DNA of 52,717 nucleotides from assembly GCA_016195275.1 (NCBI GenBank), contig JACPZZ010000023.1:1-52717 (forward strand), written 5' to 3'. This stretch comes from Candidatus Aenigmatarchaeota archaeon. Lineage in GTDB: Archaea > Aenigmatarchaeota > Aenigmatarchaeia > JACPZZ01. Every line of letters begins with the position of its first letter. Position 1 is the stretch's first letter. The notes below the pieces were generated by a model, which was given only the letters and a program-made list of their open reading frames with translations, was not told the DNA's origin and did no database searches. The translations under genes were made by a program, and so were the position numbers. Of this stretch, positions 5,601 to 49,015 are shown one piece after another.

Positions 5601-7400
5601 TCAGGCATAGCATTTTATTTTTCTGCGGTTTACAACAGCCCTCACAAGGGAAGAGCCCACATCGGAATCTTTTGAAACCTTGATCGCATCCTTGGCCCCG
5701 ACCGTAGCCGAGAACAAAAACTCGTCTTCAACGTAAACAGACACCACCCTGCCTGATATTCTGGCATCAAAGCCGATATTTACGTAAGCGCCGGATTCGG
5801 AGATGGTGTGCGACACCAATTTACCCAGGCTCTTAGCAAGAGGTTCTACATCTATGGATATGCCGAGTTTTCTTTCCAGCTCGTTCACAGTCTTGCCTTC
5901 CTTGCCTATTACGCGCGCGATCAGTTCGTTATCAACGCGCACAACCGCTTTGTTGTCGCTTATTATTTCAACATCCGCCTGCGGATCGAATTTTCTTATT
6001 TCCTGCAATATGCGCTCGCCTGCAAGCTTTCTAACAGGATGTTCTGTTTTTGCATCGGCCACAGGAACAACCACATTCTCCTCGCCGTACGTGTATATTT
6101 CGTATTCGCATTTGCCGGTTTCAAAATCGCGCACTTCTATCAGCGGCCTCGCAAGGTCGGCTTCGGTCATGCCCGACGGAACACGAACAATGAGGCCAAG
6201 TTCATAAACCTTCTGTACGGAGCCGCCCTTGAGGAAGATTATAGTGTCCAACACGCTCGTTATCATGCCCATTTCTATCCTGCCGATAAACCTTTGTATG
6301 GAATCTATTGCAGCCGAGGCATGGACAACGCCTACCATGCCGACGCCGGCCATGCGCATGTCAGCGAAAACCTCAAAATCTTTTGTCTTGCGCACTTCGT
6401 CGTAAACAGTGTAATCCGGCCTGACCAGAAGCAATATGTCAGCGGTTTTTTCTATGCTGCCGTCCAGCGGGCCGTACTGTGTTATCTCCGGCGGAACTTG
6501 CAAGTCCCTCGGATTTTCTATAGTCTTGACTATTTTATCCAGGGAAAGGTAAAATTCCGCCACGGATGCGGCGAATGTCGACTTGCCGGAGCCCGGAGGC
6601 CCGCAGATTATAATTCCCTCGGCCCGCTGTTTCAGGCGGTCCATTAGTTTGTCGGAAAGCTTGTAATCGGCTAGAACCAGTTTTGTTATCGGGCGCACTG
6701 CGGTTAACTCAAGCCCGTCGCTGAACGGCTTCCTGGCAATCGCAATGCGGTATTTGTCAAATTGTATAACAGTGGCGCCATGCGACCCCATTTCAATAAA
6801 CGCGTTTTTTTCGTGCCTGACCCTGTCCATTATTTCTTTTATCAGTGTTTCTATCTCCTCTTCTTTCATAGCCGTGTCGCGTATGCGGGCAAGTTTGACC
6901 TCGCCCGGCTTGCCTTTCTTGGCCATCGGTAAAACATCAACTTTCAGGTGGACTGAAGACGTGTTTTCATCGAAAAAATCCTCGAGTTTTATGGGCAACG
7001 TAGAACGCGTCTGCTGTATGTAAAGCACAGAAACCCCCTCCGCCTCTGCGACCAGGGCCTGCACATAGTCCGCTGTGATCAGTGTCGCTGCGTTCTCGCG
7101 TGCGATATCGCGTATTAGCGCGTCTAACCGCCCCTTTTTAGCCAGCATTATCTCTTCCATTGTAGGCCTTCGCCCAGTGAAAATAAGTTTTACCTTCTTA
7201 CCCAGCTCACCTAAAGCGCGGACTTTTTTTAACTCTTCCAGGCCCTGGAATCCGATGTCCCTTCCGCGCGAGGCCTGGGCCTGCAGCTCATCGATAACAG
7301 TCACAGGCACTATAATTTCGCCTTCGACTTTATCGCTTTCAACAAGCCCGGTTAACTTTCCATTGATCAGAACAGAGGTATCTGGCACCCATTTCTTCAT
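5601..7400 (-). CDS. PIN-domain / PilT-like ATPase / KH-domain protein (COG1855-type)
   Basis: 599 aa. N-terminal PIN signature VPDTSVLI, Walker A GPPGSGKST, and a C-terminal KH GxxG motif (VIGKEGKTVNELERKLG). Confidence 0.8.
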   Translation of the reverse strand: MKKWVPDTSVLINGKLTGLVESDKVEGEIIVPVTVIDELQAQASRGRDIGFQGLEELKKVRALGELGKKVKLIFTGRRPTMEEIMLAKKGRLDALIRDIARENAATLITADYVQALVAEAEGVSVLYIQQTRSTLPIKLEDFFDENTSSVHLKVDVLPMAKKGKPGEVKLARIRDTAMKEEEIETLIKEIMDRVRHEKNAFIEMGSHGATVIQFDKYRIAIARKPFSDGLELTAVRPITKLVLADYKLSDKLMDRLKQRAEGIIICGPPGSGKSTFAASVAEFYLSLDKIVKTIENPRDLQVPPEITQYGPLDGSIEKTADILLLVRPDYTVYDEVRKTKDFEVFADMRMAGVGMVGVVHASAAIDSIQRFIGRIEMGMITSVLDTIIFLKGGSVQKVYELGLIVRVPSGMTEADLARPLIEVRDFETGKCEYEIYTYGEENVVVPVADAKTEHPVRKLAGERILQEIRKFDPQADVEIISDNKAVVRVDNELIARVIGKEGKTVNELERKLGISIDVEPLAKSLGKLVSHTISESGAYVNIGFDARISGRVVSVYVEDEFLFSATVGAKDAIKVSKDSDVGSSLVRAVVNRRKIKCYA

Positions 7401-7563
7401 AATTATCAGTAAGTCATGTCTTTCGCGATATTTATATTTTGTAAACGAACTAATCTCGGTTCGGATGAGTTCTATTATCTGTTAAACGCGGCTTCTTTAC
7501 TTGCTCATGCAGGCAATTTTTAAACTTTGGCAGTCTATCTTTCGTTAGCTTGTGGTGCTGGAA

Positions 7564-10500
7564 ATGAAAAGTGGACCTTACAAACCGCTGGAGCTGGAAA
7601 AGCAGGCAGCAGAGTTCTGGGATGACTCCGGAATATTCAAAAAATACATGGTTAATCGCAAAGGCGGTAAGAAATATTATTTCCTGGACGGCCCGCCGTA
7701 TGCAACAGGCTCTATCCATCTCGGGACGGCCATGAACAAAATATTGAAGGATTTTTTCATACGGTTTTTCAGCATGTCCGGTTATGACGTATCGATGCAG
7801 CCGGGCTACGACACGCACGGCCTGCCGATAGAGAATAAGATAGAAAAACAGCTTAACTTTCGCTCGAAAGCGGACATAGAAAAATTCGGCATAGAAAATT
7901 TCAACGTGGAATGCAGGAGGTTTGCCACAAAATTCATAGAAACAATGAACGGCCAGTTCAAAAACCTCGGCGTCTGGATGGACTGGGATAATCCGTACTT
8001 AACGCTGGACAAAAGCTACATAGAAGGCGCTTGGTACACTTTCAAAAAGGGCTTCGAGAACGGTTTGTTATACAAGGGAAATTACCCGGTCCATGTATGT
8101 TCGCATTGCGTTGACCCGGATTCTACAATACTTGTTGAAAATGGCACCAGAAAGATCAAAGAGCTGGAAAAATGCTGGCAGCACAACAATGTAGTATCGT
8201 TTGACACTGATTCAAAAAAATTGTGCATCACCAAGCCTTTAGGTTATATGAGGCACAAAGAAGATGCGTTCGTCCTGAGAACCGAGTTGGGAAAGAAGAT
8301 AATAGCGTCCAATGACCATCCATTCTGGACAAAAAACGGCTGGCTTCCTATGTCGTCGCTTAAAACCGGGACAGAAGTCGCAACTTATAACAGTGTAGAA
8401 AGCAGGCTGCCGCTCATTGAAGAGAAAGGGAAATCGCTGGTCAATCGGGGCAGAATTAGAGACGTTATCGAAGGCCTTGAAACTTCAGGAAAGGGTGCAA
8501 ATTTCAATGATTTGAAAAGCAGTTCAAGGATAGAAATCAAAGAGTATGTGCGCGAACTAAGGAAAAAAGGGTTTTCATACCGCCAGATTATAAAATGCGC
8601 AACCAATAAATTCAGAACCAAAGTTTCTAAATCGTGGGTTTCAAAGATTATAAAAACCGAAACGTCTACAAGGTATGATTTGATAATCAAAGACCTGGAG
8701 CAGCGAAGTCTTTTACCGCTTTATAGCAAAAACGCAAAAGCTTTTGTCCTTGCCAGGCTGGCCGGCCACATGTTCGGGGACGGATCGATAATAGCTAAGC
8801 GCAGCCCAAAAAGGAAATTTCCTATTTTTACCCTCGTATTTACAGGAAAAGAGGAGGATATGAAAGAAATACAAAAAGATTTAGATGCGTTGGGATACAA
8901 TTATACACCGATAACCACGGTAAGAACCAGATCCAGAATAAACGGAAGATTAGTTGACGGGTTTACTACATCGATGAGATGCTATGCGCATTCCTTGGCC
9001 GTTTTGCTGGTTTGTTTGGGAGCTCCCACAGGAAGAAAGTCCGAGTGCATCGCCAGTATACCAAGGTGGGTATATGATAACAAAAAACTGGCCAGAGAGT
9101 TTTTAGCCTCGTACTTTGGGAGCGAGTTGGATATTGTGAAACCTAGAAGATACGAAAAGGGCTTCGAAGTCCTCCGGCTGCATATGCACAAGGATATAAA
9201 ACTTAAATCAAATGGGATCAAATTTGCAAAAGCCATATGCGAGCTTGTAGGAAGCTTCGGAATAAGCACAGGCAAACTTGTTGTCAAAGATATGACAGTT
9301 AATGATAAGAGCAAATCCAAGATCACGATAAGCATAGATTGCAACGATGATAATATTATTAGATTTTTAAAATCGTTAGGATACGAATACTGCAAAGAAC
9401 GCAAAACCAGAGCATCTCATGCCTTGGGCTATCTGTACTACAAAAAGAGAAAAGAAAGAGAGATGGAAAAAATTAAGAACCGTATTATAGAGTTGAGGAA
9501 ACGCAATTTCAAGCCTGATAAAATCGCGGCTAGATTGAAAGTGCCGGAATTTTACGTAAGGCATGTTCTTTACGGAAAATCAAAACACACGCGGCCATCT
9601 AAATACATACCAGTATTCGGCAGGTGGCTAAGCGATGCATCAAAAAATTTAAAAGACGGTATGGTATGGGATATTGTAGAGAAAATAAAATACTTGGGAA
9701 AACGCGAGGTCTGTGATATAGCGGTTGAAACCCATCACAACTTCATAGTCAACGGTTTTCTGGCTCACAACTGTGAAACAGCGGTCTCGTTCAACGAAAT
9801 AGAGCACAAGGAAGTGCAGGATAGTTCCATATACGTAAAGTTCAGGATAAAAAACAGCAACGACAGCCTTTTAATTTGGACAACAACGCCATGGACGCTT
9901 CCTTCGAACACGGGAATAATGACCAACCCGGATTACGAATACGTTCGGGTGAAAACCAGCAAAGACATTCTGATAATGGCAAAGGATCTTGCTGAAAAAG
10001 TCATGCTTGCCGGCAAGGCGGAATATTTCGAAATCATAGGCACGCTCAAAGGCAGCCAGTTAATCGGAACAGAATACGAAAATCCGTTAAAAGACCTTCC
10101 GCTGCAAAAGAACATCGTGGGTAAAGTCGTCCCGTCAGAACAATATGTCACGCTTGAAGAAGGCACAGGGCTGGTACACGTGGCGCCTGGGCACGGCAGG
10201 GAAGATTATCTCGTGGGCATTAAGCACAACCTTCCTGTCCTGTCGCCGTTAACAATGGGTGGCACGTTCAAGGCCGAAGCCGGCTGGCTTGAAGGCAAGT
10301 TTGTGAAAGACGCGGAAAAGGAGATAATTGAGAAACTCAGGGAAAAAAACGCATTGTTTGCAGCCGAAATTATAACACATGAATACCCGAAATGCTGGCG
10401 CTGCGACTCAAGCCTTTTGTTCATAGCGGTCCCGCAATGGTTTTTCAGGGTAAGCGCGATCCGCGAAAAGTTGGTAGAGGAGAACGAAAAAGTCAGCTGG

Positions 10501-36113: not shown

Positions 36114-39100
36114 TTAGTCTAATTTTATATTTTTCAGAAATTTTGAAATAAGTATTTTGAAATTCTTCCTGTTTCCCAGCGCAGCAGCAACCAGGACAGT
36201 CGCCGCGGCCGCAAGCAATAGCAGGATTGTTGCACCCCTGTCCCTGGCTTCTTGTGCCGCAGGTTCGGGGGTTTTATTTTTTTCAGTGTCGTTTACAATT
36301 ACAAACGTAGTGTTCGGCGGAATCGAAACATTGAACATTGTTGTGGTCGTGGTCGTAGTTGTCGTGGTTGTGATTGCGGTCGTTGTCGTCGTTGTCGCAG
36401 AACTACCGCCACCAGTCGGGCCGCCGGTTGGCGGACGGGCAGACACACACGCCACGCACGGCCCGCCGCAATCCGTTCCGCCTTCGCCCTGGTTTTGTAT
36501 ATTATCGCTGCAAGTCGGCATAACAAAAACCCCATAGACGCTGAAGTGTGTTGAGTTGGCCCAGACATATTTGTCTGTCGTGTTGACGCCCCCCACGTTT
36601 GCGCCGCTGAATAAAACCCAGCTTCCGTTAGGGTGGTTGTAATAGATTCTCAGGTTGTTTTCATCGTAACCAGCAGGAATTTCAGAGGCCGTGTAAGGCA
36701 TCCTCATTTCAACCCAGGTCAGGGTCTGGTTCAGCCACCCACCCACCGATATCTCTGTGAACCTGCTTAAAGACACCGCAGCATTATTTTCGTTTGAAGG
36801 ATTATTTGCATAATAAGCTACAATCAAAGAGTCTGTAATTCCGGAGTCTGACGAGGAACTTATGTTAAGTGTGATATTGGCCTCTGCCGAAAGGTTAAAC
36901 AACATCACACTCCTCACAGGAACCGAGGGGTTTGAAAAAAGCGCCGTTGTAACCGAAGACGACACAGTGAAATTTCCCAGCGAGTAATTAACTGCGTTTC
37001 CAAAAAAATCGGCGAAGGACACATTGATATAAAACAGGCCGTTGTTCAGTGCAGAGGTGTTAAGGCTGGTGAAAAAAGTTGTCCTGTTAAGAAACTGAAC
37101 ATTACCCTCAACGTTGATAATGTAGTTCAACACCTTTCTAAGCACGCTTGCGTTCGTGGTGTTGAAGATATTTACAGTCGCCGTATTCGCGCTGTAATCG
37201 TCCGAGATAGCAAGCACACTTATGTTCCTGTTTATGCCGGCCGATCTTGGCAGCGCCCAGCCGTCTGCTAGCACAGGCGGTGACGTGTCCACGACCCTGA
37301 AAACAATATGTTCAAGCGTCGCGTTGGCCGTGTAATTCTCGTTGGCTGAGGAGTTCGCGGAAAAGTTGTAGATTCCTACCGGCTGGGCTGTTCCGGTAAA
37401 CGTATTTGTGCCTATGCTGGAATTCCTCAGCAACAATTGTTCTAAAGTGGTATTTGAATAAAGCCTGGTTTCTATTTTCACATCAACAGACGACGAATTT
37501 ATGTGGAACGGCCCGGGTATCTCAACAGTTGTTGCGTTTGCGCTTATAGAAGTATAAGCCGACGTGTTTTTTTGTATCACATAGTACCACGCGTTTGTTT
37601 TATTCCAGTTGTTGGAAGTATCGTTGGCGTACCAAATTACAGGATAGCCTGTTGCGTTGGCGGCCAAGTCCGTGATATTGACCGACCAGTTGCCGGATGC
37701 GGGCGTGCCTGCAAACATTGAAGCTGTGTAATTGGTGGCGTTGAACTGCATTACCGCATGGGATATGCCGGCGTTATCCTGAAGCGTGGCGTTAAACCTG
37801 TAAACCCTGTTCGGGAAATATTGAATCCCGCTGTCCGGCGATGTCGCATCGGAAACAATCAGAGGCGTTACTATATCGGCCACGGTGGCGAATAACATCT
37901 GCAAGGATGCGGAGTAGTTGTCATCGCCCCTGAAATACGCTGTGATGTTGAATATACCGGGTTGATTAAGCAGGGTCTCATTATTAACCCTGTTAGTTGC
38001 GTTCTGGTCGGTCCAGCCGCTCATGTTCGAGGTAAGCGTTAAATTTTTCCCGGAAATATTTACTGTGGCTGTGAAATTGGCAAACGTCGAATAATTGTAT
38101 ACAAAATTAGCTGCGCTTCCATTCAGCAGAAGCGTTATGCTGGTTGGCCGTTTTGTAACAGTTAATATCCTGGTTATGTTTGCAAAAGAATAATTTTCGC
38201 TTTCTGTAAATGCCAGCGTATAATTGTAAATTCCGCCAGATAAAATCACGGATTCATTGGGCTGGTTTATTCCTGCAATTCCAACAACAGAGCCGTTCCT
38301 GTATAACGTCAGGTTTCCTTCCGTAAAGTTCTTCCATCCGGTGATGTTTAGTGTGTAGTCGTAAGGTGAGAAGACGTCGTTATTTGTGTTATTTAACGTG
38401 AGGTTCATGAAATTCTTGGAGTAGTTCTTAGAGATTATGTATGCAATCGACGAAGTCGAGCCCCATTCGTTCTGCGATGAGTTGGCAAACCACCTGTAAA
38501 CGTGAATTCCTGCAGGCAGGTCTGTTATGTTTATCCAAAACAGGCCAGCGCTGTTGTTGTAAACTTGGTATGCGGAATTTTTTGTGTAATTGGTATTGTT
38601 CAACTGGAAGATTGCGTGAGAAATTTCATCCGGCGAAATTGTGCCAGTCACGTTTATTTCAAAGCTGTAATTCTCCCTGGGCGCATACGGGGTACCGGAG
38701 TTCTTGCCTGTCTTATCATTGCTGAATACAACCGGCGTTCCGGAATACGCTACAAAATACTCCTGCGATCCTGCGACAGAAGTTCCGTTTACATATATAT
38801 GCCACGGCCCGCTTACCGGATTGGAAACAAAAACCTGCTCTACAGTATCATTGACATCGGAGGGGTTGGTGAAGTTGTTTGTAGCGTTTCCCACAATAAG
38901 ATCCAAATTATCTTTGGTGGTGCTGTTTTCCATCCACGACAATGTGACCCTGAACTGGGAAGAAGACACGAAAACGCTTTTCTTTTTCAGACCGCTTTGC
39001 TGAACAGACTCGTTCCACGATTTTTTCATAGAATAGACGGCTTCATAAGCGTCCAGCCTGCCTGCGCCGTAATTGTTGTTCCTTTGCGTGAAACCGTCAA

Positions 39101-40295
39101 TGGTCATGTTGGACGTGTTGACGGAATTTATCAGTATCGATTTTATCAGACCCGGGCTTGGAAGATAGCCGAAGCTTTCGTTATGCCTTTGCATAAGCAT
39201 CGCCGCTATGCCGGACACAAAAGGCGCGGCCATCGACGTGCCCGAGGCTGTAGCATAATTGCCGCCAAGATAAGAAGGGTACGTGGATGTTATACTCGCG
39301 CCTGTCGCGGACAAATCGGGTTTCGTTCTGTTATCGTTTGTCGGCCCGCGTGAACTGCCGGAAACTATTTTATCGGTTTTATCCGTATTGCCGACAGCGA
39401 TGGACGTTTTCGCGCATGCGGGCGCCGCCATCGTCCTTGCTGAAGGTCCGGAATTGCCCGCAGCAACAATGACAACGACTCCCCTGCTCGTTGCATTGTC
39501 AACAGCAGCCGAAGAGCCGACGTCGTAGCAATCTGCAAACTGGTTGAATGTTACGCCAAGGCTCATCGAAATGATGTGCGCGCCGTTATCCACAGCCCAT
39601 TGTATGCCGGAAACTATGTCGCTGTCAGACCCGTCGCCGTTGCTGTCCAAAACTTTTACCGCCATGATACTGGCATTAGGCGCAGTGCCGCGGCCGAAAG
39701 AACCGCCCTCGCCTGCGGCTATGCCTGCGACGTGCGTGCCGTGGCCATGATCGTCTGTTGCATTACTGCTTGTGGCCGTATTGTTCGGCGGGCATTTGTT
39801 CTGAGTGAAACATTTTTCAATTATTATCCTGTTAGGTGTCTGGAATTCGCTGTGGTTGAATACGCCGGTATCTATTATCGCGATCTTTATGTTTGTCCCG
39901 TTAGAACCGAACGTGTTCATCGCCAAATCGGCACGCAACAAGGGTATCGCATTGGATCTGAAAGCCTTTACAGGGTGGTCTATGGTAATTTTTTTGACAA
40001 AATCAGCGGATGCGAGTTCCTTTAATTTGGATTTTTTAACTTCCATGGCCACTGCAGGTATGATGTCGAACTCCTTTTTGATTTTGCCCGCGTTCGCAGC
40101 TTTGTACCTGTCGTATTTTTCCCTGTCCACCCACACGATGACTTTTATCGTTTCGTCCCCGGTTTCGTTTATTTTAACCGCAAGGTTCTTGTCAAGTTTT
40201 TCCACGCCTCTGGCATCGTAGGATTTGCCTGCTACTATGTTTGTAACTAGAATCAGGCACAAAATCAGGCCCACGAACAAAGCGGCGTTTTTCAT
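36114..40295 (-). CDS. giant surface-anchored subtilisin-like (S8) serine protease with sequon-rich C-terminal extension
   Basis: 1393 aa. Signal-like N-terminus and catalytic triad contexts DTGV, HGTHVAGIAAG, SGTSMAAPFVSG. About 850 residues are N-x-S/T-rich. Then a Cys motif CSDNIQNQGEGGTDCGGPCVAC, a poly-Thr linker (TTTTTTAITTTTTTTTTTT) and a C-terminal TM helix. Confidence 0.85.
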   Translation of the reverse strand: MKNAALFVGLILCLILVTNIVAGKSYDARGVEKLDKNLAVKINETGDETIKVIVWVDREKYDRYKAANAGKIKKEFDIIPAVAMEVKKSKLKELASADFVKKITIDHPVKAFRSNAIPLLRADLAMNTFGSNGTNIKIAIIDTGVFNHSEFQTPNRIIIEKCFTQNKCPPNNTATSSNATDDHGHGTHVAGIAAGEGGSFGRGTAPNASIMAVKVLDSNGDGSDSDIVSGIQWAVDNGAHIISMSLGVTFNQFADCYDVGSSAAVDNATSRGVVVIVAAGNSGPSARTMAAPACAKTSIAVGNTDKTDKIVSGSSRGPTNDNRTKPDLSATGASITSTYPSYLGGNYATASGTSMAAPFVSGIAAMLMQRHNESFGYLPSPGLIKSILINSVNTSNMTIDGFTQRNNNYGAGRLDAYEAVYSMKKSWNESVQQSGLKKKSVFVSSSQFRVTLSWMENSTTKDNLDLIVGNATNNFTNPSDVNDTVEQVFVSNPVSGPWHIYVNGTSVAGSQEYFVAYSGTPVVFSNDKTGKNSGTPYAPRENYSFEINVTGTISPDEISHAIFQLNNTNYTKNSAYQVYNNSAGLFWINITDLPAGIHVYRWFANSSQNEWGSTSSIAYIISKNYSKNFMNLTLNNTNNDVFSPYDYTLNITGWKNFTEGNLTLYRNGSVVGIAGINQPNESVILSGGIYNYTLAFTESENYSFANITRILTVTKRPTSITLLLNGSAANFVYNYSTFANFTATVNISGKNLTLTSNMSGWTDQNATNRVNNETLLNQPGIFNITAYFRGDDNYSASLQMLFATVADIVTPLIVSDATSPDSGIQYFPNRVYRFNATLQDNAGISHAVMQFNATNYTASMFAGTPASGNWSVNITDLAANATGYPVIWYANDTSNNWNKTNAWYYVIQKNTSAYTSISANATTVEIPGPFHINSSSVDVKIETRLYSNTTLEQLLLRNSSIGTNTFTGTAQPVGIYNFSANSSANENYTANATLEHIVFRVVDTSPPVLADGWALPRSAGINRNISVLAISDDYSANTATVNIFNTTNASVLRKVLNYIINVEGNVQFLNRTTFFTSLNTSALNNGLFYINVSFADFFGNAVNYSLGNFTVSSSVTTALFSNPSVPVRSVMLFNLSAEANITLNISSSSDSGITDSLIVAYYANNPSNENNAAVSLSRFTEISVGGWLNQTLTWVEMRMPYTASEIPAGYDENNLRIYYNHPNGSWVLFSGANVGGVNTTDKYVWANSTHFSVYGVFVMPTCSDNIQNQGEGGTDCGGPCVACVSARPPTGGPTGGGSSATTTTTTAITTTTTTTTTTTMFNVSIPPNTTFVIVNDTEKNKTPEPAAQEARDRGATILLLLAAAATVLVAAALGNRKNFKILISKFLKNIKLD

Positions 40296-40933: not shown

Positions 40934-41698
40934 ATGATCGACGCCCATTGCCATCTCACGTTCAGGAATTTTGAAAACAACAGAGACCAGATAATAAAGG
41001 AATGTATGGATTCTATGGACGCGGTTGTCGACAGCGCACCTTCTATAGAAGATTCCGGAAAGTCCATAAGGCTGGCTGAAAAATATCCCAACTTTATCTT
41101 TTCGTGCGTTGGTCTTCACCCGTCGGAGATACCTAAATTGACTGCCAAGCAGATAGACAGCCAGATAGAATTCATAAAATCCAATTCTGGTAAAATCATT
41201 GCCATAGGGGAGGTCGGTATAGACAAGTTCCACGTAAAAAGCGAAGCTGACAGAAGAAAATGCGCCGACGTTTTTGTGCAGTTTATAGAACTTGCGAAAG
41301 AATTGAAAAAACCCCTGGTTATTCACTCGCGCGGCGATAATGGAGAGGCGATAAAGATTCTGGAGAACAGCGACGCAAGAAAAGCGATCATGCATTGCTT
41401 CGGTGCAGAGGATTTTTTGCAGAACGTAATGGATAACAGATGGTTCGCGTCAATACCCACCCTGATCGTAAGGTCAAAAAAGCACATGCGAATCGCAAAA
41501 CAAACGCCGTTGGAGCTTTTGTTGACGGAAACAGACTCGCCTTTCCTTAGCCCGATTAAGGGCGAAACGAACGTTCCAAAAAACGTCCGCGCTGTTGTTG
41601 AGGCCATTGCTGCGGAAAAAGGCATATCATTTGGCGAAGTTGACAAAGCCACGACAAACAACGCGATAAACGCATTTAACCTGCCTCTGGTAGATTAA
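40934..41698 (+). CDS. tatD: TatD-family metal-dependent hydrolase/DNase
   Basis: 254 aa. N-terminal IDAHCHL, internal EVGID, HSR, and a C-terminal ETDSPFL motif. Confidence 0.85.
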   Translation: MIDAHCHLTFRNFENNRDQIIKECMDSMDAVVDSAPSIEDSGKSIRLAEKYPNFIFSCVGLHPSEIPKLTAKQIDSQIEFIKSNSGKIIAIGEVGIDKFHVKSEADRRKCADVFVQFIELAKELKKPLVIHSRGDNGEAIKILENSDARKAIMHCFGAEDFLQNVMDNRWFASIPTLIVRSKKHMRIAKQTPLELLLTETDSPFLSPIKGETNVPKNVRAVVEAIAAEKGISFGEVDKATTNNAINAFNLPLVD

Positions 41699-41864
41699 AC
41701 TGGAAACAGCGTTGCAGATAATGTATCGACAAATGACGTATATTGGGTACAGGATGAGGACTTTAGGTACAGTCTGATGTTTTGTATTTTTCTATCGGAA
41801 CTTCATTATCACTAAATATTAAAACTATGCAACGGCTATTAAATTCAGAAGTTTTGGTGACTAC

Positions 41865-42620
41865 ATGAACAAATTAAAGTTTCCGTGGGATTTTGAAAAT
41901 AAAATCATTTGTGGAGATACAATAGAAGTAATGAAACAGATACCCAACGGTTCGGTTCAATTGATAGTAACCTCACCCCCATACAATCTTAAAAATTCTA
42001 CGGGCAACGGTATGAAGGACGGACGTGGCGGAAAATGGGCAAACGCTGCTTTACAAAAGGGGTATTCTAATCATGACGATTGTATGTCACACGAAGAATA
42101 TGTAAAATGGCAAAAAGCGTGTCTAACAGAGATGATGAGAATAATTCCAGAAGACGGAGCAATTTTTTATAATCATAAGTGGCGAGTACAAGATGGTTTG
42201 TTGCAAGATCGACAGGATATCGTTAATGGCTTTCCAGTTAGACAAATCATTATTTGGAAAAGAAAGGGAGGTATTAACTTCAACAAAGGCTATTTTCTTC
42301 CAACTTATGAAGTGATATATCTTATTGCGAAACCCAAGTTCAAGCTTGTTTCAAAAGCAAATGCGTACGGAGATGTATGGGAATTTACGCAAGAAATGAA
42401 TAATGACCATCCCGCGGCATTTCCCGTACAATTGATAGATAGAATAATATCTTCAACGAATACCAAGATTATATTGGACCCGTTTATGGGGTCTGGTACA
42501 ACAGCAATTTCTTCGATTAAATTTAATCGGAATTATATTGGAATCGATATTTCTCCCGAATATTGTGAAATGGCACGAAATAGAATAAAGCAACATCAGG
42601 CCCAAGCTATATTACGGTAA
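41865..42620 (+). CDS. beta-class DNA methyltransferase (SPPY type, probably N4-cytosine)
   Basis: 251 aa. Motif IV VTSPPYNL near the N-terminus and motif I DPFMGSGTTA near the C-terminus. AT-rich coding sequence. Confidence 0.85.
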   Translation: MNKLKFPWDFENKIICGDTIEVMKQIPNGSVQLIVTSPPYNLKNSTGNGMKDGRGGKWANAALQKGYSNHDDCMSHEEYVKWQKACLTEMMRIIPEDGAIFYNHKWRVQDGLLQDRQDIVNGFPVRQIIIWKRKGGINFNKGYFLPTYEVIYLIAKPKFKLVSKANAYGDVWEFTQEMNNDHPAAFPVQLIDRIISSTNTKIILDPFMGSGTTAISSIKFNRNYIGIDISPEYCEMARNRIKQHQAQAILR

Positions 42621-42624
42621 TACT

Positions 42625-43422
42625 ATGAAAACTAAAACACGTATCTATACGAAACAAACATTGATAGGTAGGTTAAAAGAAATTGCTAAAATGGGATTCG
42701 TACCAAACAATCGATTTGGTAATTCTGGTGGAATTGGAAATACACTCGAAGATCTTTTAGAAATTAAAGAAAACAATCTTCCTATGCCGAATGCAGCGGA
42801 ATGGGAGTTAAAAACACAACACATTAATTCATCTTCTCTTACAACGCTCTTTCACATAGAACCTTCCCCTCGTGCAATTGGTTTCGTGCCACAAATATTT
42901 TTGCCAAAATATGGATGGCTACACCAAGAAGCCGATAAGAAATACCAAAAGGGAGAAATGAGTTTTCGACAAACAATAAATGGTAATTCTAGAAGTGATC
43001 GAGGCTTCAAGGTGGTTATAGATCGTAAAGAACAAAAGGTGCTTATTTCGTTTGATGCGAACAGCGTTTCTCCGAGGCATAAAGAATGGTTAGAGTCGGT
43101 AAAACAGCGGGTAGGTCTTGGAGAACTTAATCCCCAGCCGTATTGGGGTTTTGAGGACTTAAAACATAAAGCTGGAACAAAATTGCTTAATGCGTTCTAT
43201 GTTCAAGCCGAGGTAAAAAAAGACACCAATAGGGAATATTACAAATATAGCAAGATTATGATGTTACAAAAGTTTAGTTTCGAAGGATTTTTGCGAGCAC
43301 TTGAAGCTGGTAAAATTCTTGTAGATTTTGATGCACGTACAGGGCACAACCATGGCACAAAATTCAGGTTGAAGCAAGATTGTTTACCAATGCTTTACGA
43401 AAAAGTCACTATAATTCTTTAA
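42625..43422 (+). CDS. MvaI/BcnI-family type IIP restriction endonuclease
   Basis: 265 aa. From memory of the BcnI sequence: GGIGNTLEDLLEIKENNLPMPNAAEWELK resembles GVVGQILERQFGVQENNITLGDLGEFELK, TTLFH resembles LTLFH, and C-terminal NHGTKFRL resembles DRGPHLRI. It starts 4 nt after the methylase. Confidence 0.7.
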   Translation: MKTKTRIYTKQTLIGRLKEIAKMGFVPNNRFGNSGGIGNTLEDLLEIKENNLPMPNAAEWELKTQHINSSSLTTLFHIEPSPRAIGFVPQIFLPKYGWLHQEADKKYQKGEMSFRQTINGNSRSDRGFKVVIDRKEQKVLISFDANSVSPRHKEWLESVKQRVGLGELNPQPYWGFEDLKHKAGTKLLNAFYVQAEVKKDTNREYYKYSKIMMLQKFSFEGFLRALEAGKILVDFDARTGHNHGTKFRLKQDCLPMLYEKVTIIL

Positions 43423-43445
43423 TTTAATTGTTGGGAAGTATCATT

Positions 43446-43730
43446 ATGAAAGAGACTATAGTTACTTGTCCTTTTTGTAGCAAGGAGATAACAGTTAATT
43501 ATAGCCCGTCGATACGCTATTCTAAGACAGAGATTACTGCTACTCTAGGCCGCAGAACCAAATGGTTTCATACTAAAGAAAGATATGAAACTATTGAAGA
43601 CTGTCCAAATTGTCACAAATCTAAAAAAGAGATCCAAAAGGCATTGAACGGAGAAATGTTAATGAAGCCAAAATCCAAAGAGGATCTCAAAAGACAACTT
43701 GAAGAATTGGGCCTTTCCGGTAAACTGTGA
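43446..43730 (+). CDS. zinc-ribbon protein, function unknown
   Basis: About 94 aa from the ATG at 43446 (the ORF opens at TTG 43428). CPFC...(43 aa)...CPNC pairs, then a charged helical tail. Confidence 0.5.
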   Translation: MKETIVTCPFCSKEITVNYSPSIRYSKTEITATLGRRTKWFHTKERYETIEDCPNCHKSKKEIQKALNGEMLMKPKSKEDLKRQLEELGLSGKL

Positions 43731-43751
43731 GGTTTCGACTTTTTGATTAGT

Positions 43752-43868
43752 ATGATAGAGTACGTAGATGTGTGGTTGAAATCTCGTCCTCAAAGGACTT
43801 TCCCTATGCCAAAAGGGTACGAGCAGCGAACAATGGAATTCGTAGATAAGGCAACCATTGGTGGTTGA
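43752..43868 (+). CDS. 38-aa ORF, possibly the 5-prime part of a frameshifted gene continued by 43858-44127
   Basis: ATG-started MIEYVDVWLKSRPQRTFPMPKGYEQRTMEFVDKATIGG. It overlaps the next ORF by 11 nt in a different frame. Confidence 0.25.
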   Translation: MIEYVDVWLKSRPQRTFPMPKGYEQRTMEFVDKATIGG

Positions 43869-44127
43869 GCAGTCGTCGGTGAATTATCCAAATACCGTGG
43901 CTAAGAAACCCGGGGATATTGGCTCTACTTTGATGCTTGCAAATAATCGGGAGAATACAGCCGTCCTCCGGGACAGGCTAGCCGTCAAAATGGCCGTGTA
44001 TTTCAATTCGGACGAGATAAGAAAACAACAGGCAACTGGAAAAGAAAAGCTAAGTATGACAGACCGGCTTTATGTGGTAGATCGTGAGTTGATAGAATTA
44101 GACTGGGAACTTGAAAGATGGATGTAG
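43858..44127 (+). CDS. hypothetical protein (TTG start; may be the 3-prime part of a split gene)
   Basis: 89-aa ORF that opens only 4 codons after an in-frame stop. No recognisable motif. Confidence 0.35.
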   Translation: MVVEQSSVNYPNTVAKKPGDIGSTLMLANNRENTAVLRDRLAVKMAVYFNSDEIRKQQATGKEKLSMTDRLYVVDRELIELDWELERWM

Positions 44128-44137
44128 AGCTTATTAA

Positions 44138-44635
44138 TTGCACAACCGATATTGGGTATTAGGCGATGTTTTGACATTCAATATTCGTGATCTGTTTCGC
44201 AGCAGCAAAAGAAACGTAGCCATTTTTATCGACGGCCCGAACATGATTCGCAAGGAGTTTAACATAGACCTGAAAGAAGTCCGCGAGCGCGCGCAAAAAT
44301 ACGGCAGGATAGTTTTCGGAAAAGTATTCCTTAACCAGTTCGCGTCTGAAAAGCTAATCGAGGCCGTGGTCAGCCAGGGCTTTGAGCCTTTGGTGACACT
44401 TGCCGTTGAAAAAGACCAGGATATAGACGTGCATATGGCAGCCGAAGCCATGGAAGCTGCTTACAGCAGCAACATAGACGTTATCGTTATCGTATCAAGG
44501 GACACGGATTTCCTGCCGGTAGTGCAAAAGGCAAAGAAAAAAGGCAAGATAACGATTGTAATGGGTTCCGAGCCAGGCTTTTCAATGGCTTTGAGAAATG
44601 CGGCAGACCATGTTGAGGATTTGACAAAGAAATAA
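44138..44635 (+). CDS. NYN-domain (LabA/DUF88-like) predicted ribonuclease
   Basis: 165 aa with a non-ATG start of uncertain position. VAIFIDGPN (first Asp) and VIVSRDTDFLPVVQKAKKKGKITIV (DxD plus Gly-Lys) match NYN signatures. Confidence 0.75.
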   Translation: MHNRYWVLGDVLTFNIRDLFRSSKRNVAIFIDGPNMIRKEFNIDLKEVRERAQKYGRIVFGKVFLNQFASEKLIEAVVSQGFEPLVTLAVEKDQDIDVHMAAEAMEAAYSSNIDVIVIVSRDTDFLPVVQKAKKKGKITIVMGSEPGFSMALRNAADHVEDLTKK

Positions 44636-44670
44636 ATATTTTTGTTGGACAACAGCCCGCAGTATGTGCT

Positions 44671-44678
44671 TATATAAA
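44671..44678 (+). promoter_or_regulatory. TATA-like box preceding the duplicated 20-nt leader
   Basis: tatataaa lies immediately 5-prime of ccttgtattctggcgttgtg (44681-44700). Confidence 0.3.
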
Positions 44679-44695
44679 TTCCTTGTATTCTGGCG

Positions 44696-44746
44696 TTGTG
44701 ACTAAAGTGCGATTTGTGATTAAAGTAGGGCGGATGTGATTAAAGT
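44696..44746 (+). repeat. three direct iteron-like 13-mers (TTGTGAYTAAAGT)
   Basis: ttgtgactaaagt at 44696-44708, ttgtgattaaagt at 44714-44726, atgtgattaaagt at 44734-44746. Spacing is 18 and 20 nt. Confidence 0.6.
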
Positions 44747-44826
44747 CTGTGAATTGGTCAATTTTCGATCAGGCAACCCAAAACAACACGTAACCGTTAA
44801 ATAGGGGTACCTTTCGATAGTTCTAT

Positions 44827-45297
44827 ATGGTTAAGATCGAAAACATATATTTGGACACATCATTATTGATCGGTGTTGCCCTTTCTCTTATGGATAGTAA
44901 AAACGACGATACACGCATCGTAAAATTTCTTGGCAAGCACAAAAGTGAAATAACGGCTTATACATCTTTTCTTTCCTTGGCAGAGTTGGCCAAAACGATT
45001 AAAACTGACAGGAGATTTCGAAAATTCTGGAGTAATGATAAATCCATCGTTGCCTTTATCGATACCGTTATCAAGACTACGAACTTAATCATTATAGAAA
45101 ACGAAAAGGCTATAATTCGAAAAGAAATAATAGATTTTGTCCTTCTTCACCAAGAAGTTTCTGACTGCCTTCATGTAGGTCTGGCAAAACTTAATAATCT
45201 GTGGTTCATTACTCACGATGATAAGATAGGAAAAATAAAGCCATTATACGAGAACATAATGACAGACACCAAACTAATGAAACAATTCGACGATTAA
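44827..45297 (+). CDS. PIN-domain nuclease (VapC-like)
   Basis: 156 aa with an ATG start. Acidic quartet candidates: YLDTSLL (D10), SLAELAK (Glu), VSDCLHVGLA (Asp), ITHDDK (Asp). Confidence 0.6.
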   Translation: MVKIENIYLDTSLLIGVALSLMDSKNDDTRIVKFLGKHKSEITAYTSFLSLAELAKTIKTDRRFRKFWSNDKSIVAFIDTVIKTTNLIIIENEKAIIRKEIIDFVLLHQEVSDCLHVGLAKLNNLWFITHDDKIGKIKPLYENIMTDTKLMKQFDD

Positions 45298-45452
45298 TCT
45301 TTGCTAAGATTTTTCATTATCTCTTTTACTTTGGCCTTTCCTTCCTCATAGGTAAATGTCTTGGTGGGCTCTAGAACAGTAATAAAATGGCCGTTAAGCT
45401 TGACAGTTTTCCTTTTCATGTCCTTAATGATAACGTTAACGTTTTTTCTCAT
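45294..45452 (-). CDS. small hypothetical protein (52 aa from ATG; ORF opens at GTG 45512)
   Basis: MRKNVNVIIKDMKRKTVKLNGHFITVLEPTKTFTYEEGKAKVKEIMKNLSKD. It is convergent with the PIN gene and overlaps it by 4 nt. Confidence 0.35.
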   Translation of the reverse strand: MRKNVNVIIKDMKRKTVKLNGHFITVLEPTKTFTYEEGKAKVKEIMKNLSKD

Positions 45453-45513
45453 GTTATAATGTTTCAAAGGAATAGCATATAAGTTTAAATACTTAAGTAA
45501 TCTATTAATCACT
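45453..45513. promoter_or_regulatory. AT-rich divergent promoter region
   Basis: A 60-nt AT-rich spacer (tataatgtttcaaaggaatagcatataagtttaaatactt...) lies between the divergent small ORFs at 45452(-) and 45514(+). Confidence 0.3.
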
Positions 45514-45789
45514 ATGTTAACTAATGAATTGAGAAATAAATTAAGAGAAGAACTAAAGAATAACCCAAAAAAGGCTATAGAGATTTTGAAAAAAGAACCT
45601 CAAGTTATAGAAATGCTTCTTAATGCAACCGAACAGGTAGAAAGGGAGAGAAACGAAAAAATAAAATATGTAAACATGACGGCAGAAATGGACATACAAC
45701 TTCGTGATAGAGCGTATCAACTGAAAACCACGCAAGGTGCACTGATCGGTGCGGGTCTTTTATTTCTACTGTTGTTACTCGAAGATTAA
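45514..45789 (+). CDS. small tail-anchored membrane protein, function unknown
   Basis: 91 aa with an ATG start. A charged helical N-part is followed by a C-terminal TM helix ALIGAGLLFLLLLL ending ED. Confidence 0.4.
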   Translation: MLTNELRNKLREELKNNPKKAIEILKKEPQVIEMLLNATEQVERERNEKIKYVNMTAEMDIQLRDRAYQLKTTQGALIGAGLLFLLLLLED

Positions 45790-45840
45790 AGTCGCCTTGT
45801 TGTGATTTTAGTCGTCGTTTTTGGGCACTTAAATCACAAG
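45784..45840. repeat. second cluster of the iteron-like motif (two direct, one inverted copy)
   Basis: gattaaagt at 45784-45792, ttgtgattttagt at 45800-45812, inverted acttaaatcacaa at 45828-45840. It overlaps the perfect palindrome acaaggccttgt (45835-45846). Confidence 0.55.
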
Positions 45841-45858
45841 GCCTTGTATTCTAGTGTT

Positions 45859-46455
45859 ATGGGTTACAAAACCAGAACATTTCCTGATATAACCGAAGCT
45901 AGAAAAATTTTGGAACTGGACTTACGTAGATATTTCAGAGCAATACGGGCCATGCGCTCTTACAACCAGTTCATAGAAGCAGCCAGCCCCGAAGTTGATG
46001 TTGTCGGGCAGGAAGCGGGAAAGGTTATATCAGAAACCGGCGCCATTGGAAAGTTAAGCCTTACCAGTTCATATCTCGGTTTCATGGATATTACCGACGG
46101 CAAAATGTATGACACGCACTCAATGAGGAATGCGATGGCAAGCGGGTATTTAATGGAAAGATTTATCAGCGGTTTTCATTTCTGGCTTCGTGATGAGCGT
46201 GTGGCGTTTGAATGCCTGTATGTGGATGCGCCAGCCCATGTAAAAATGATCGGGTCAATGGGGACAGAAACGATAGACGGAATTGTCCGCCTCGGCGCAG
46301 AAACCAGAAGCGAATCCGGCATGGTCTTTCTCAATGCCCCGGAAAAACCGGAATTTTATTTCGCATTTGTTGCAGAAGATGACACTGGTATGCATGCGAA
46401 TTTACTTGTCCGATGCATTTCGCAAGATCCTTTTTACCTGTCCCCGCGTCCCTAG
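45859..46455 (+). CDS. orphan 198-aa protein, function unknown
   Basis: I trimmed to the ATG at 45859 because the upstream part of the ORF is the repeat region. No motif recognised. The 3-prime end overlaps the aRF1 stop by 4 nt (convergent). Confidence 0.5.
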   Translation: MGYKTRTFPDITEARKILELDLRRYFRAIRAMRSYNQFIEAASPEVDVVGQEAGKVISETGAIGKLSLTSSYLGFMDITDGKMYDTHSMRNAMASGYLMERFISGFHFWLRDERVAFECLYVDAPAHVKMIGSMGTETIDGIVRLGAETRSESGMVFLNAPEKPEFYFAFVAEDDTGMHANLLVRCISQDPFYLSPRP

Positions 46456-48998
46456 TATTTCACCCTGTATCTTAATATCCCGCCGATTCCGCCAAGCTCT
46501 TTTAGCTGTGCGCCTTCTCTTGTGCTCGAAGAAACGATGTGGTATTCCGTTTTGAAGTCCTCTGCGGTTGTTATAGCAACGTCGATTAAGTCTTCGGTAT
46601 TAACAGTGCGCATTTCCATCCTGCAATTGGAGCAAAGCTGTTTCTCGTTGGGTTTGTAATCGCGCGTTTCTTGGTTGCCGCAGCTTCCGCACTTTAAACC
46701 CGAACGAATCCAGTCAAAATCCTCGGACACTATCAGCTTCTGCAGCATACCGTTTTGCAGCGCCTCTTTGACTTTTCCCCAGCCGTAGATAGCCAAGCCG
46801 GAATCTTTCTGCAGCTCTGTGAAAAAACCCTTCAGGAGCTCTATCTCCTTTGTGACAGCGGCATTTGAGAGTATCTTTTGCGCCCTGTTGACAAGCTCGT
46901 GCAAACCGGCCTCGTTTGTATAAGAAATGTCAACAACTCCGGCCACTTTTTTCTGGAGTTCGTAATGCAGATAGCCGTCTTTAACAAAATCGTCTTTAAC
47001 AGGTCCCGGCCCGCCGATGATTATGCCGATAAGCTCTTTCTTTCCAAGGAACGCCTGCGTAGCTATATCGGAAACCTCTTTCAGGAAATCATTCAGCAAA
47101 CCTTCGCGTATCCGCGCATATCTTTGCTGGCTGTTGTGCAGAATCAGCCCGTTTGCTATGAAATTGTTAAGTTTTGGCACAGATATATCATAGAATATGC
47201 CAGGCGATTCCACCGCCTTTTTACCTTTTATTTTCAGCGCGATCAGGTTGCCCAAAACTTCGTGTCGTAGATAACCGATTTTTTTGTGCCGTATTAAATC
47301 TTTTATTCGGTTTGTCTTGCCCTTGGAGGAAAATCCTATCATCTGCTCGAATTTCACTATGTACACTGGCCCTGTAATTCTGACACAATATTTATTTACC
47401 TTGGAAAAGCTGCCTTTCGGAGACCTTACGGAAAACGATGACACTATACCGAACCGCAAAAGCAGCTGCTGGAGTGTCCTTATCACAGCTTCGCTGGACA
47501 TGGTTATCCCCACCACACCAGCGTTCGTGTCTATATAACCCTCTGCATCGAACAGCCCTTTGATAAAAGCCGCAACTTCCGGGTTTTGCGACATTTGGAT
47601 CTGTTCAGGTATACTTCTTGAATGCGCATTCAGCGCCACGGACGGGAACACAGTGTTTATAAAACCGGACAGGTACTTGCTGTGTATTTTAATCTCGTAA
47701 TACCCTTTTGAAACCCTCTTCCTTATTCTGGTGTTTGCGCCAAACAGCCTTCTGGACAGGGAACTGTAAAACTCCGCCAACTGAATATCGCCTTCGTACA
47801 GTCTGGGCCCGAACTCGTCAATACCGCCGCCGCCCATGAAGTACCCCAAAAACTGGCAAAATTCCTCGTTAATCAATTTTGGTATTTTAACGAGATCCGA
47901 AGATTCTATATGATGCCTGTAAAAATACCCCCTGTCGATACCAAGCAGGCTTAGTAATTTATTCAGATTTTCTTTTTTCAGCATTCTTTGGTTAAGCTCT
48001 AGTTTTGATATTATTGTTTGAGAAAGGCCGAGTTTTTTAGCCACATATTTTTGTGACATCCCGTTTGAAATGCGTTTCCGCACCAGCAGCTTAATCCCAG
48101 TCGCCTTGATCCTTAGCGATTTTGGCGTCTCATAATCGATGGACATGCGTCTACCTTCAAGGTCCATTTTTAGTGGAGAAAGCAGCAGATCCCCTTCTTT
48201 TATTTCTGATAAAGGCCTGGACATTATCGTGTTCCTATCGAAAACAAAGAAATTGTGTTCTGGGGTTGCGACAATCTTCATAGACGGGGCTTGTGTAACT
48301 ATTTCATAAGCGGTCTTCGCTTCCCTTCTCCTGATCGTATCAAAGCTGGTGCTTTCTGTTTTGTCTTCGATAAAATTGAAAGCTGACACACGGCCGCCTT
48401 TAAGGTCCTTAATGCTGACTAGCCTGCCGTCAGGAACCTGCACCATGGTGTTTTCATGAACGCACCACCCCCCGGCCGCCGTTTTGGATGGCACCAAAGA
48501 ATCGACGTGTTTGAACACAACTATTTTTTTGCCGGCCAGATAACCTATCGTAGCCTCGGACTTGTCCACGGCCAACAAACCGTAAACTTCCTTGTCCTTT
48601 ACCATTTCTTCAAGGGGCTCAAGCACGAATTGCTGGTCGCACCAGTAAAGCTTGTTTTGCATTTTCTCCGGCGGCTCAATAGCCCACAAATCGAGTTTCT
48701 GTGCGCCTTCGGTTTCAGAAACATTTCCTGAAAAAATCGCGAGCCCGTTCTCCGGAGTTTCGCGGTAGATCCTGAGGTGCTGTATTATTTTATCCAGCGC
48801 AGCCAGCACGTTGTTGCGCGTGGCTTTTGACTTGATGTTTTGTGTCGTAGAGCCTTCGGATTTTAGCTGGTTTATGATATCTATCAAACTGTAGCCTGCA
48901 GGAACATAGACCGTAACCAGTTCCGTGTGCCGCCCGCGTATCTTCTTTAGCCGGCGTATGAGCTTTTTTAATTCTATTATCCTGATATCATTGGGCAT
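46452..48998 (-). CDS. prf1: peptide chain release factor aRF1 interrupted by an in-frame intein
   Basis: NIKS motif (TQNIKSKATR) and YxCxxxF (YWCDQQF). Extein junction TAAGGW/SQQRYARIRE aligns with the GGQSxxRFxRLR region. The ATG is at 48998 (the ORF opens at TTG 49007). Confidence 0.9.
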   Translation of the reverse strand: MPNDIRIIELKKLIRRLKKIRGRHTELVTVYVPAGYSLIDIINQLKSEGSTTQNIKSKATRNNVLAALDKIIQHLRIYRETPENGLAIFSGNVSETEGAQKLDLWAIEPPEKMQNKLYWCDQQFVLEPLEEMVKDKEVYGLLAVDKSEATIGYLAGKKIVVFKHVDSLVPSKTAAGGWCVHENTMVQVPDGRLVSIKDLKGGRVSAFNFIEDKTESTSFDTIRRREAKTAYEIVTQAPSMKIVATPEHNFFVFDRNTIMSRPLSEIKEGDLLLSPLKMDLEGRRMSIDYETPKSLRIKATGIKLLVRKRISNGMSQKYVAKKLGLSQTIISKLELNQRMLKKENLNKLLSLLGIDRGYFYRHHIESSDLVKIPKLINEEFCQFLGYFMGGGGIDEFGPRLYEGDIQLAEFYSSLSRRLFGANTRIRKRVSKGYYEIKIHSKYLSGFINTVFPSVALNAHSRSIPEQIQMSQNPEVAAFIKGLFDAEGYIDTNAGVVGITMSSEAVIRTLQQLLLRFGIVSSFSVRSPKGSFSKVNKYCVRITGPVYIVKFEQMIGFSSKGKTNRIKDLIRHKKIGYLRHEVLGNLIALKIKGKKAVESPGIFYDISVPKLNNFIANGLILHNSQQRYARIREGLLNDFLKEVSDIATQAFLGKKELIGIIIGGPGPVKDDFVKDGYLHYELQKKVAGVVDISYTNEAGLHELVNRAQKILSNAAVTKEIELLKGFFTELQKDSGLAIYGWGKVKEALQNGMLQKLIVSEDFDWIRSGLKCGSCGNQETRDYKPNEKQLCSNCRMEMRTVNTEDLIDVAITTAEDFKTEYHIVSSSTREGAQLKELGGIGGILRYRVKY
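47133..48464 (-). mobile_element. intein (444 aa) with LAGLIDADG core and an XRE-type HTH
   Basis: Starts CVHENTMVQVPDG and ends GLILHN, followed by the +1 Ser. LAGLIDADG motifs are FLGYFMGGGGIDE and AAFIKGLFDAEGYID. HTH segment is MSQKYVAKKLGLSQTIISKLELNQR. Length is 1332 nt, in frame. Confidence 0.85.
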
Positions 48999-49015
48999 AG
49001 CAATCAATTGGTTTG

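Follow-up and report, generated by a model that had tools for sequence, protein, structure and literature searches.

Two compositionally foreign insertions on either side of a conserved NYN-domain gene between tatD and aRF1 in an Aenigmatarchaeota genome

In the genome of a Candidatus Aenigmatarchaeota archaeon (lineage JACPZZ01), the genes tatD and aRF1 are separated by about 4.7 kb of DNA, located on a contig of 52,717 nucleotides (JACPZZ010000023.1) that was analysed over its whole length and is referred to below as the window. This block holds a type II restriction-modification (R-M) pair, i.e. a methylase and an endonuclease, followed by a zinc-ribbon (Zn-ribbon) ORFan, an open reading frame (ORF) split over two frames, an NYN-domain gene, a PIN-domain gene, a gene for a protein of 52 amino acids (aa), s52, a gene for a 91-aa helical protein, TM91, and an orphan gene of 198 aa. 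An initial annotation, made from the letters of the sequence, listed these ORFs and read them as a single AT-rich defence island and as a candidate for an undescribed defence system. All of them are indeed present between tatD and the 3' end of aRF1, at the positions listed there, and the question that the locus raises is whether they belong together. Our analysis indicates that they probably do not, and that the block is best described as a mosaic, in which a conserved backbone carries an R-M cassette and a PIN cassette in its two spacers and no new multi-gene system is present. The backbone is the phylum-wide arrangement tatD, NYN (family TIGR00288) and convergent aRF1, and in this clade the native 198-aa gene is found between NYN and aRF1 as well; two unrelated pieces of foreign DNA have probably entered the two short spacers separately. 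A defence-island call made from sequence alone can dissolve in this way, with two of the genes proving core or native and the rest two unrelated small insertions.

Composition and the conserved backbone

The G+C counts made by hand in the initial annotation are exact (20/60 for positions 42661–42720 inside the block and 28/60 for 41341–41400 in tatD). The single AT-rich block, however, gave way to two separate troughs with normal GC in between. Measured in 1-kb steps against the DNA outside the block (GC 0.461 ± 0.022 in 1-kb windows; genome average 0.455), the troughs are found at 41751–42750 (z = −4.8) and 44751–45750 (z = −5.5), and the stretch between them, 43751–44750, is ordinary (z = −0.8). 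The individual genes follow the same division: GC is 0.37 in the methylase, the endonuclease and the Zn-ribbon gene and 0.34–0.35 in PIN, s52 and TM91, and it is native-like in the split ORF (0.43–0.45), NYN (0.46) and the orphan (0.466). Tetranucleotide frequencies were correlated with those of the rest of the window and compared to 200 size-matched controls. The correlations for 41716–43730 (GC 0.364, with the split ORF left out) and for 44701–45841, 0.40 and 0.34 respectively, were under all 200 controls, and those for NYN (0.67) and the orphan (0.57) were inside the control range. Codon usage was host-like in tatD and NYN (0.32), intermediate in PIN and s52, and scored approximately zero, that is, foreign, in the methylase, the endonuclease, the Zn-ribbon gene and the split ORF. 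Only two stretches are thus compositionally foreign, here designated insertions A and B, with a GC of 0.35–0.37 against 0.46.

With the NYN gene as a probe, we fetched 58 related loci and compared all proteins of the window to them by tblastn. The order tatD, NYN and convergent aRF1 is kept in approximately 45 of these 58 loci (Aenigmatarchaeota, DPANN); wherever tatD is present, it is located upstream of NYN and co-directional with it, in most cases as its immediate neighbour, and the spacers are typically shorter than 130 bp (tatD–NYN) and 65 bp (NYN–aRF1). Between 35063 and 52273, the window aligns collinearly with the locus of the closest genome (L001; 73–80% nucleotide identity), in which spacers of 98 and 12 bp separate tatD, NYN and convergent aRF1; collinearity is broken at 41712–44194, at 44629–46465 and by a gap inside aRF1. 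In the window, the left anchor of this triad is the core gene tatD (40934..41698, + strand; 212.9 bits with TIGR00010 against a cut-off of 206) and its right anchor the core gene aRF1 (46452..49007, − strand). The TatD protein was also considered as a QatD candidate and rejected, as its 88 bits are far from the cut-off of 230.

The NYN gene itself (44138..44635, + strand) matches PF01936 (1.7e-29) and scores above the curated cut-off of TIGR00288 (192 vs 178.45 bits); its true start is probably the TTG at 44171, and its orthologues in the 58 loci are 46–84% identical. The domain had been correctly recognised in the initial annotation, which counted the gene as a ribonuclease carried by the island. 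As the protein passes the TIGR00288 cut-off and its place between tatD and aRF1 is conserved in some 45 loci, we consider it to be a core gene. In score, sequence and conservation of position it is like other TIGR00288, or LabA-like, archaeal NYN proteins and shows nothing unusual, and here it is neither an accessory nor a defence gene. The persistence of the triad hints at a functional link of two nucleases with translation termination.

The 198-aa gene (45859..46455, + strand), the supposed orphan of the island, proved to be native to the lineage, lineage-specific and fast-evolving. When 1.8 billion representative proteins were searched exhaustively with HMMER, P0005–P0008 were the only real relatives (approximately 200 aa each, 26–33% identical). 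One of these, P0006, is encoded between NYN and aRF1 in locus L006 (939–1514), the same arrangement is seen in L012 (6481–7065), and L010 (6459–6739) has an internally deleted pseudogene, the N- and C-terminal remnants of which are approximately 70% identical to the gene in the window. Because it is syntenic in the first two loci and persists as a remnant in the third, the orphan is ancestral to the clade, some members of which have lost it or show it in decay, and it evolves far faster than its neighbours: in L012 its product is 30% identical to that of the window, vs 80% for NYN and aRF1. The initial annotation had named gene order conserved as core genome in relatives as an argument against its own proposal; such conservation was found for NYN and the orphan, and horizontal acquisition stands for a part of the block.

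An AlphaFold2 model of the orphan protein (predicted local distance difference test, pLDDT, 69; predicted template modelling score, pTM, 0.69) matched no fold in PDB or BFVD at E ≤ 0.001, and a profile search gave a weak match to the N-terminal domain of the arginine repressor ArgR (E = 0.0019), which we regard as a lead only. The 6510-aa protein P0004 was retrieved as a relative as well (E = 2e-23); this match is spurious, since its score adds up over 14 near-identical repeats that contribute about 5 bits apiece. Members of the family are extremely scarce (about 6 among the 1.8 billion representative proteins), and in locus L005 one of its members adjoins a free-standing LAGLIDADG gene.

Insertion A, a restriction-modification cassette with two ORFans

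Insertion A (about 41716..44125, + strand) comprises about 2.4 kb at a site that measures 52–132 bp in relatives. According to blastn and to alignment with five related loci (L001, L009, L010, L012 and L064), homology ends near 41715, right after tatD, and returns near 44126, at the NYN promoter and directly after the split ORF. The type II R-M pair proposed in the initial annotation is genuine. The methylase (41865..42620, + strand) is a beta-class N4/N6 DNA methyltransferase (PF01555, E = 9.8e-42, 143.8 bits) with SPPY at residue 37 and FMGSGT at residue 207, and the endonuclease (42625..43422, + strand) belongs to the MvaI/BcnI family of type II enzymes (PF15515 MvaI_BcnI, E = 4.1e-63, 213.9 bits, model positions 1–227 of 227). 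PADLOC called the two as MTase_II (3e-121) and REase_II, and the solved structures nearest to the endonuclease are R.MvaI (1.3e-17) and R.BcnI (3.4e-6). The SPPY motif is typical of N4-cytosine amino-methyltransferases such as M.MvaI.

The endonuclease probe detected at least 582 related loci across many phyla, of which the best 80 (L067–L146) were fetched. These share 70–80% aa identity with the window and derive from candidate phyla radiation (CPR)/Patescibacteria, DPANN, Methanosarcinales, Gammaproteobacteria, Bacteroidales and others. In 79 loci the methylase is located directly upstream of the endonuclease; the 80th, L106, was fetched only from 100 bp before the endonuclease onwards. Nucleotide similarity between the window and the fetched loci spans 41864–43428, precisely the coding DNA of the two genes, from the methylase start codon to the endonuclease stop codon. 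Outside these, the 80 loci, although from very different phyla, have no conserved flanks. The pair shows how freely a single minimal cassette moves between the ultra-small bacteria and archaea of groundwater; published work describes genes exchanged by Patescibacteria and DPANN as well as genomic islands of Patescibacteria that carry R-M systems (PMC12455944).

Compared with the characterised MvaI/BcnI systems (R.MvaI, CC^WGG, with the m4C methylase M.MvaI; R.BcnI, CC^SGG), the pair in the window is alike in its full-length match to the family profile, in its beta-class PF01555 methylase with SPPY and FxGxG motifs, and in its gene order and tight spacing. It differs in that the endonuclease does not readily align with MvaI itself (phmmer E = 1.3e-17) and in the spread of its lineage, at the identities given above, over CPR bacteria, DPANN archaea and other phyla. 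The pair adds a member to a well-known family. We propose that insertion A brought in a self-contained type II R-M module, in which the methylase, being of the SPPY type and probably forming m4C, would protect the sites of the host, and the monomeric MvaI/BcnI-type endonuclease would cut unmodified incoming DNA, probably at a site of the CCNGG type. In the window, CCWGG occurs 80 times where 123 occurrences would be expected (ratio 0.65), and for CCSGG no depletion is seen (1.05); this mild depletion lends weak support to a CCWGG-like recognition site. The module is best read as a selfish cassette that may also be addictive to its host, and this would account for its dissemination as two genes without any companions.

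The remaining two genes of insertion A are unrelated ORFans beside the R-M pair. The Zn-ribbon protein (43446..43730, + strand; 94 aa) does bear the CxxC...CxxC pattern noticed initially; it gave only sub-threshold matches to zinc ribbons, forms a singleton cluster and had no match in viral contigs. The split ORF is likewise as first described, a frameshifted ORFan in two frames of the + strand (43743–43868, 41 aa, and 43858–44127, 89 aa, overlapping at 43858–43868), with no homologue in the 58 NYN loci, the 80 R-M loci or viral and metagenome contigs. The Zn-ribbon gene, too, was found in none of the 80 R-M loci; neither of these ORFans nor TM91 yielded relatives in viral or metagenome contigs, and no similarity to phage DNA was detected. 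The frameshift recurs in L148, a Logan assembly made independently (99.98% identity, no gaps), and the split ORF is probably decaying. A 25-nt imperfect inverted repeat (41838–41862 and 43404–43428, 76% complementary) brackets the R-M pair exactly and was examined as a possible boundary; it is probably due to chance, since its left arm falls outside the region that is conserved in other loci.

Insertion B, a small cassette within a target duplication

Insertion B (about 44701–45841, 1.14 kb) separates the NYN gene from the orphan. The initial annotation had reported no flanking att site, yet a 20-nt direct repeat brackets this second AT-rich stretch. Its left copy, CCTTGTATTCTGGCGTTGTG, is at 44681..44700 and its right copy at 45842..45861 (both + strand), the latter taking in the ATG of the orphan. 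The copies are identical at 17 of 20 positions, a match that was reached in 2 of 500 shuffles of the junctions and in none of 100 shuffles of the whole window. Locus L010 has a single copy, contiguous on its left with the spacer that follows NYN and on its right with the coding sequence of the orphan, and because this copy is uninterrupted, the repeat in the window is a duplication of the target, with the start codon of the orphan included.

Inside the repeat, the ends of the insertion are marked by short motifs. The operator-like motif GTGAYTAAAGT noted initially is real and occurs at the left end in three direct copies on the + strand (44698..44746, starting at 44698, 44716 and 44736), upstream of PIN. 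The right end (45784..45837) has two degenerate direct copies (45784–45813) and an inverted one, GTGATTTAAGT (45827–45837, − strand), 4 nt ahead of the right direct repeat; the 11-nt inverted end motifs match at 9 of 11 positions. The inverted copy sets a TTAAAT approximately 22–32 nt upstream of the ATG of the orphan, which may now serve as the TATA box of that gene. This pair of end motifs had no second example in the 148 loci assembled here. A double GTGATTAAAGT motif in four viral contigs was considered as a parallel and rejected, the three that were examined being 9-nt microsatellites. No recombinase or transposase domain was detected in any ORF of the block, an Rfam search gave no match, and the absence of a flanking tRNA gene, already remarked on in the initial annotation, was confirmed, with none within 16 kb.

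Insertion B is comparable to small integrated elements with att-like direct repeats in its foreign composition and its 20-nt target duplication and, as in att cassettes, the duplication restores the 5' end of the gene that follows. Unlike such elements, it measures only 1.14 kb, lacks an integrase or transposase, is located at no tRNA gene, and has 11-nt inverted end motifs with subterminal repeats. A recombinase provided in trans was probably responsible for its integration.

The first gene of the insertion encodes a VapC-like PIN-domain protein of 156 aa (44827..45297, + strand; PF01850, 27.0 bits vs a gathering score of 23.6, model positions 1–117 of 120). A word-indexed search of 5.8 billion protein clusters found a single homologue, P0003, with 41% identity and with the acidic residues D10, E53, D113 and D131 invariant; no further relatives were found when metagenome, viral and genome contigs were scanned, nor by tblastn in plasmids or phages. 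The s52 gene (45294..45452, − strand) is convergent with PIN, the two overlapping by 4 bp at their stop codons, and no known domain was recognised in its product. On the contig of P0003 (L004), a 48-aa gene is positioned tail-to-tail with the PIN homologue and is homologous to s52 (37% identity, E = 1e-9). TM91 (45514..45789, + strand) ends, as first described, in a hydrophobic C-terminal anchor (hydropathy up to 2.67 over residues 75–89); it has no homologue, and no counterpart beside the PIN pair in L004. An L004 ORF of 80 aa upstream of its PIN gene was compared with TM91, and the idea that TM91 is a ribbon-helix-helix (RHH) antitoxin was dropped, there being no similarity between them. In the window, no ORF in any frame was found upstream of PIN (44636–44826).

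The PIN protein is like the toxins of VapBC systems in its small size and in the conservation of the four acidic positions, and the pair resembles such systems in having an adjacent small partner gene and a patchy distribution on foreign-looking DNA. It is unlike them in the convergent orientation of s52 with overlapping stop codons, in the lack of a recognisable DNA-binding domain in s52 and in the strong divergence of the PIN protein. The cargo of insertion B would be a PIN (VapC-like) ribonuclease and a conserved, convergently transcribed 52-aa partner, acting as toxin and neutraliser in a stabilising or abortive-type module. Judging from these sequences, the pair could be a non-canonical variant of toxin–antitoxin systems on an unusual mini-cassette, known from one locus and one distant relative. 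The contig L004 is of high GC and has a ResIII/Helicase_C_2 helicase gene directly upstream of the small gene. It comes from run SRR12113385, and the Logan contig L148, which covers part of our window, from SRR12113409; these accessions being so close, the two contigs may share one community.

Variable spacers, competing readings and nearby features

The spacers that received the two insertions are variable among the 58 loci. Of 49 loci, 12 have a tatD–NYN spacer longer than 250 bp, and of 48, 19 have an NYN–aRF1 spacer longer than 180 bp; the cargo seen in the window is unique to it. In relatives the spacers hold genes for pilin-like and other membrane proteins, a YadA-head adhesin-like protein, a tail-fibre-like protein (Peptidase_S74), Fic/DOC, an HhH-GPD glycosylase, an S-adenosylmethionine (SAM) synthetase, an Ntn hydrolase and a VWA protein. 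Both spacers are slots for accessory genes and not for defence genes in particular.

Several results weigh against the mosaic as described above. Neither the block nor those flanks that are collinear with L001 yielded a recombinase. For insertion A, no flanking repeat proved significant, the only one being a 10-mer, ATATTGGGTA, reached in 40 of 500 shuffles. Since the GC of the split ORF is native-like, insertion A may be a composite, or of greater age than it seems. The depletion of CCWGG is weak beside that of control words (0.65 vs 0.74 for GGWCC and 0.84 for GGSCC). As to the PIN pair, s52 is convergent with its partner and not upstream and co-directional as the antitoxin gene is in canonical VapBC, the true antitoxin of L004 could be the 80-aa ORF upstream of its PIN gene, and an AlphaFold model of PIN, made from a two-sequence alignment, is too poor to confirm the fold (pLDDT 52.6). 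The putative toxin–antitoxin function is suggested by two instances only.

A different view of insertion B would make PIN, s52 and TM91 a new miniature mobile element, carrying a non-canonical toxin–antitoxin or abortive-infection module and preferring the spacers of the triad. The 20-nt duplication with its end motifs, the conservation of the convergent pair and the expansion of both spacers in many relatives agree with this. Only one copy of the cassette exists anywhere, however, its motifs were not found again in the 148 loci, the spacer cargo of relatives is unrelated and mostly of a non-defence nature, and no recombinase was found; we therefore consider such an element unlikely. The bolder formulation, in which insertion B is the first miniature integrative cassette seen in DPANN, with inverted ends of the form GTGAYTWAAGT, the 20-nt target duplication, a non-canonical PIN toxin neutralised by the convergent s52 and the triad spacers as recurrent landing sites of accessory cargo across Aenigmatarchaeota, is similarly doubtful, the case for the cassette being made by one locus and one distant relative. 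The PIN/s52 cassette and the variable spacers could nevertheless help to study how genome-reduced DPANN gain accessory genes without obvious integrases.

The original proposal, that a single defence island is formed by the R-M pair, the Zn-ribbon gene, NYN, PIN, the membrane mini-protein and the orphan, which would make up or include an undescribed multi-gene system, fared worse. A known defence system does stand beside nuclease-domain genes in a variable and partly AT-rich region, and to that extent the proposal survives, with a truly variable site and a bona fide type II R-M system. That system is the only one, and the foreign DNA came in two separately bounded pieces, around a phylum core gene and next to a native one. 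The PADLOC check that had been suggested for finding an undescribed system returned MTase_II and REase_II and, beyond these, weak matches of NYN, among them one to the candidate HEC-09 (1.5e-5), which are overridden by its TIGR00288 membership. Nor do the ORFs co-occur in other genomes, a point that the initial annotation had raised for checking: the Zn-ribbon gene, the split ORF, PIN, s52 and TM91 are absent from the 80 R-M and 58 NYN loci, and across all 148 loci no co-occurrence of the ORFs was seen, the R-M pair standing alone. A single island is, in our opinion, very improbable. An assembly or binning artefact, with AT-rich fragments of another organism stitched in, would fit the sharp shifts of composition at gene boundaries and the R-M genes being nearest to those of CPR bacteria, but is practically excluded, because the independent contig L148 (Logan, 5.8 kb) has the same arrangement, running from the methylase to aRF1 via NYN, insertion B and the orphan at the identity given above and without gaps, and both junctions of insertion B are with native sequence.

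A third, independent mobile insertion nearby is the intein of aRF1, which comprises 444 aa (47133–48464, − strand), has Intein_splicing, LAGLIDADG_3 and HTH_3 domains and C...HN|S junctions, and is lacking from the aRF1 of L001, L010 and L064. A different intein, 29% identical, occupies this site in the aRF1 of L009, and gaps of 1.3–1.5 kb between the halves of aRF1 in L037 and L050 may also be inteins.

Genes for surface proteins are seen in the spacers of L030 (1446–4123) and L045 (6490–9075) and in the tatD–NYN spacers of L042, L049 and L052; the pilin-like transmembrane proteins are conserved among several loci, and S74 is a chaperone domain. These surface proteins of other Aenigmatarchaeota could be host-attachment genes. 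In L044, the NYN–aRF1 spacer (6469–7942) has toxin-like cargo at the same site as insertion B, namely Fic/DOC, the HhH-GPD glycosylase and a Yippee-like Zn protein. Within the window, upstream of tatD, a gene on the − strand (36114–40295) encodes a 1393-aa subtilisin-like surface protein, rich in N-glycosylation sequons, with a Thr-rich stalk and a C-terminal anchor, which is kept at 50–75% identity in the closest relatives.

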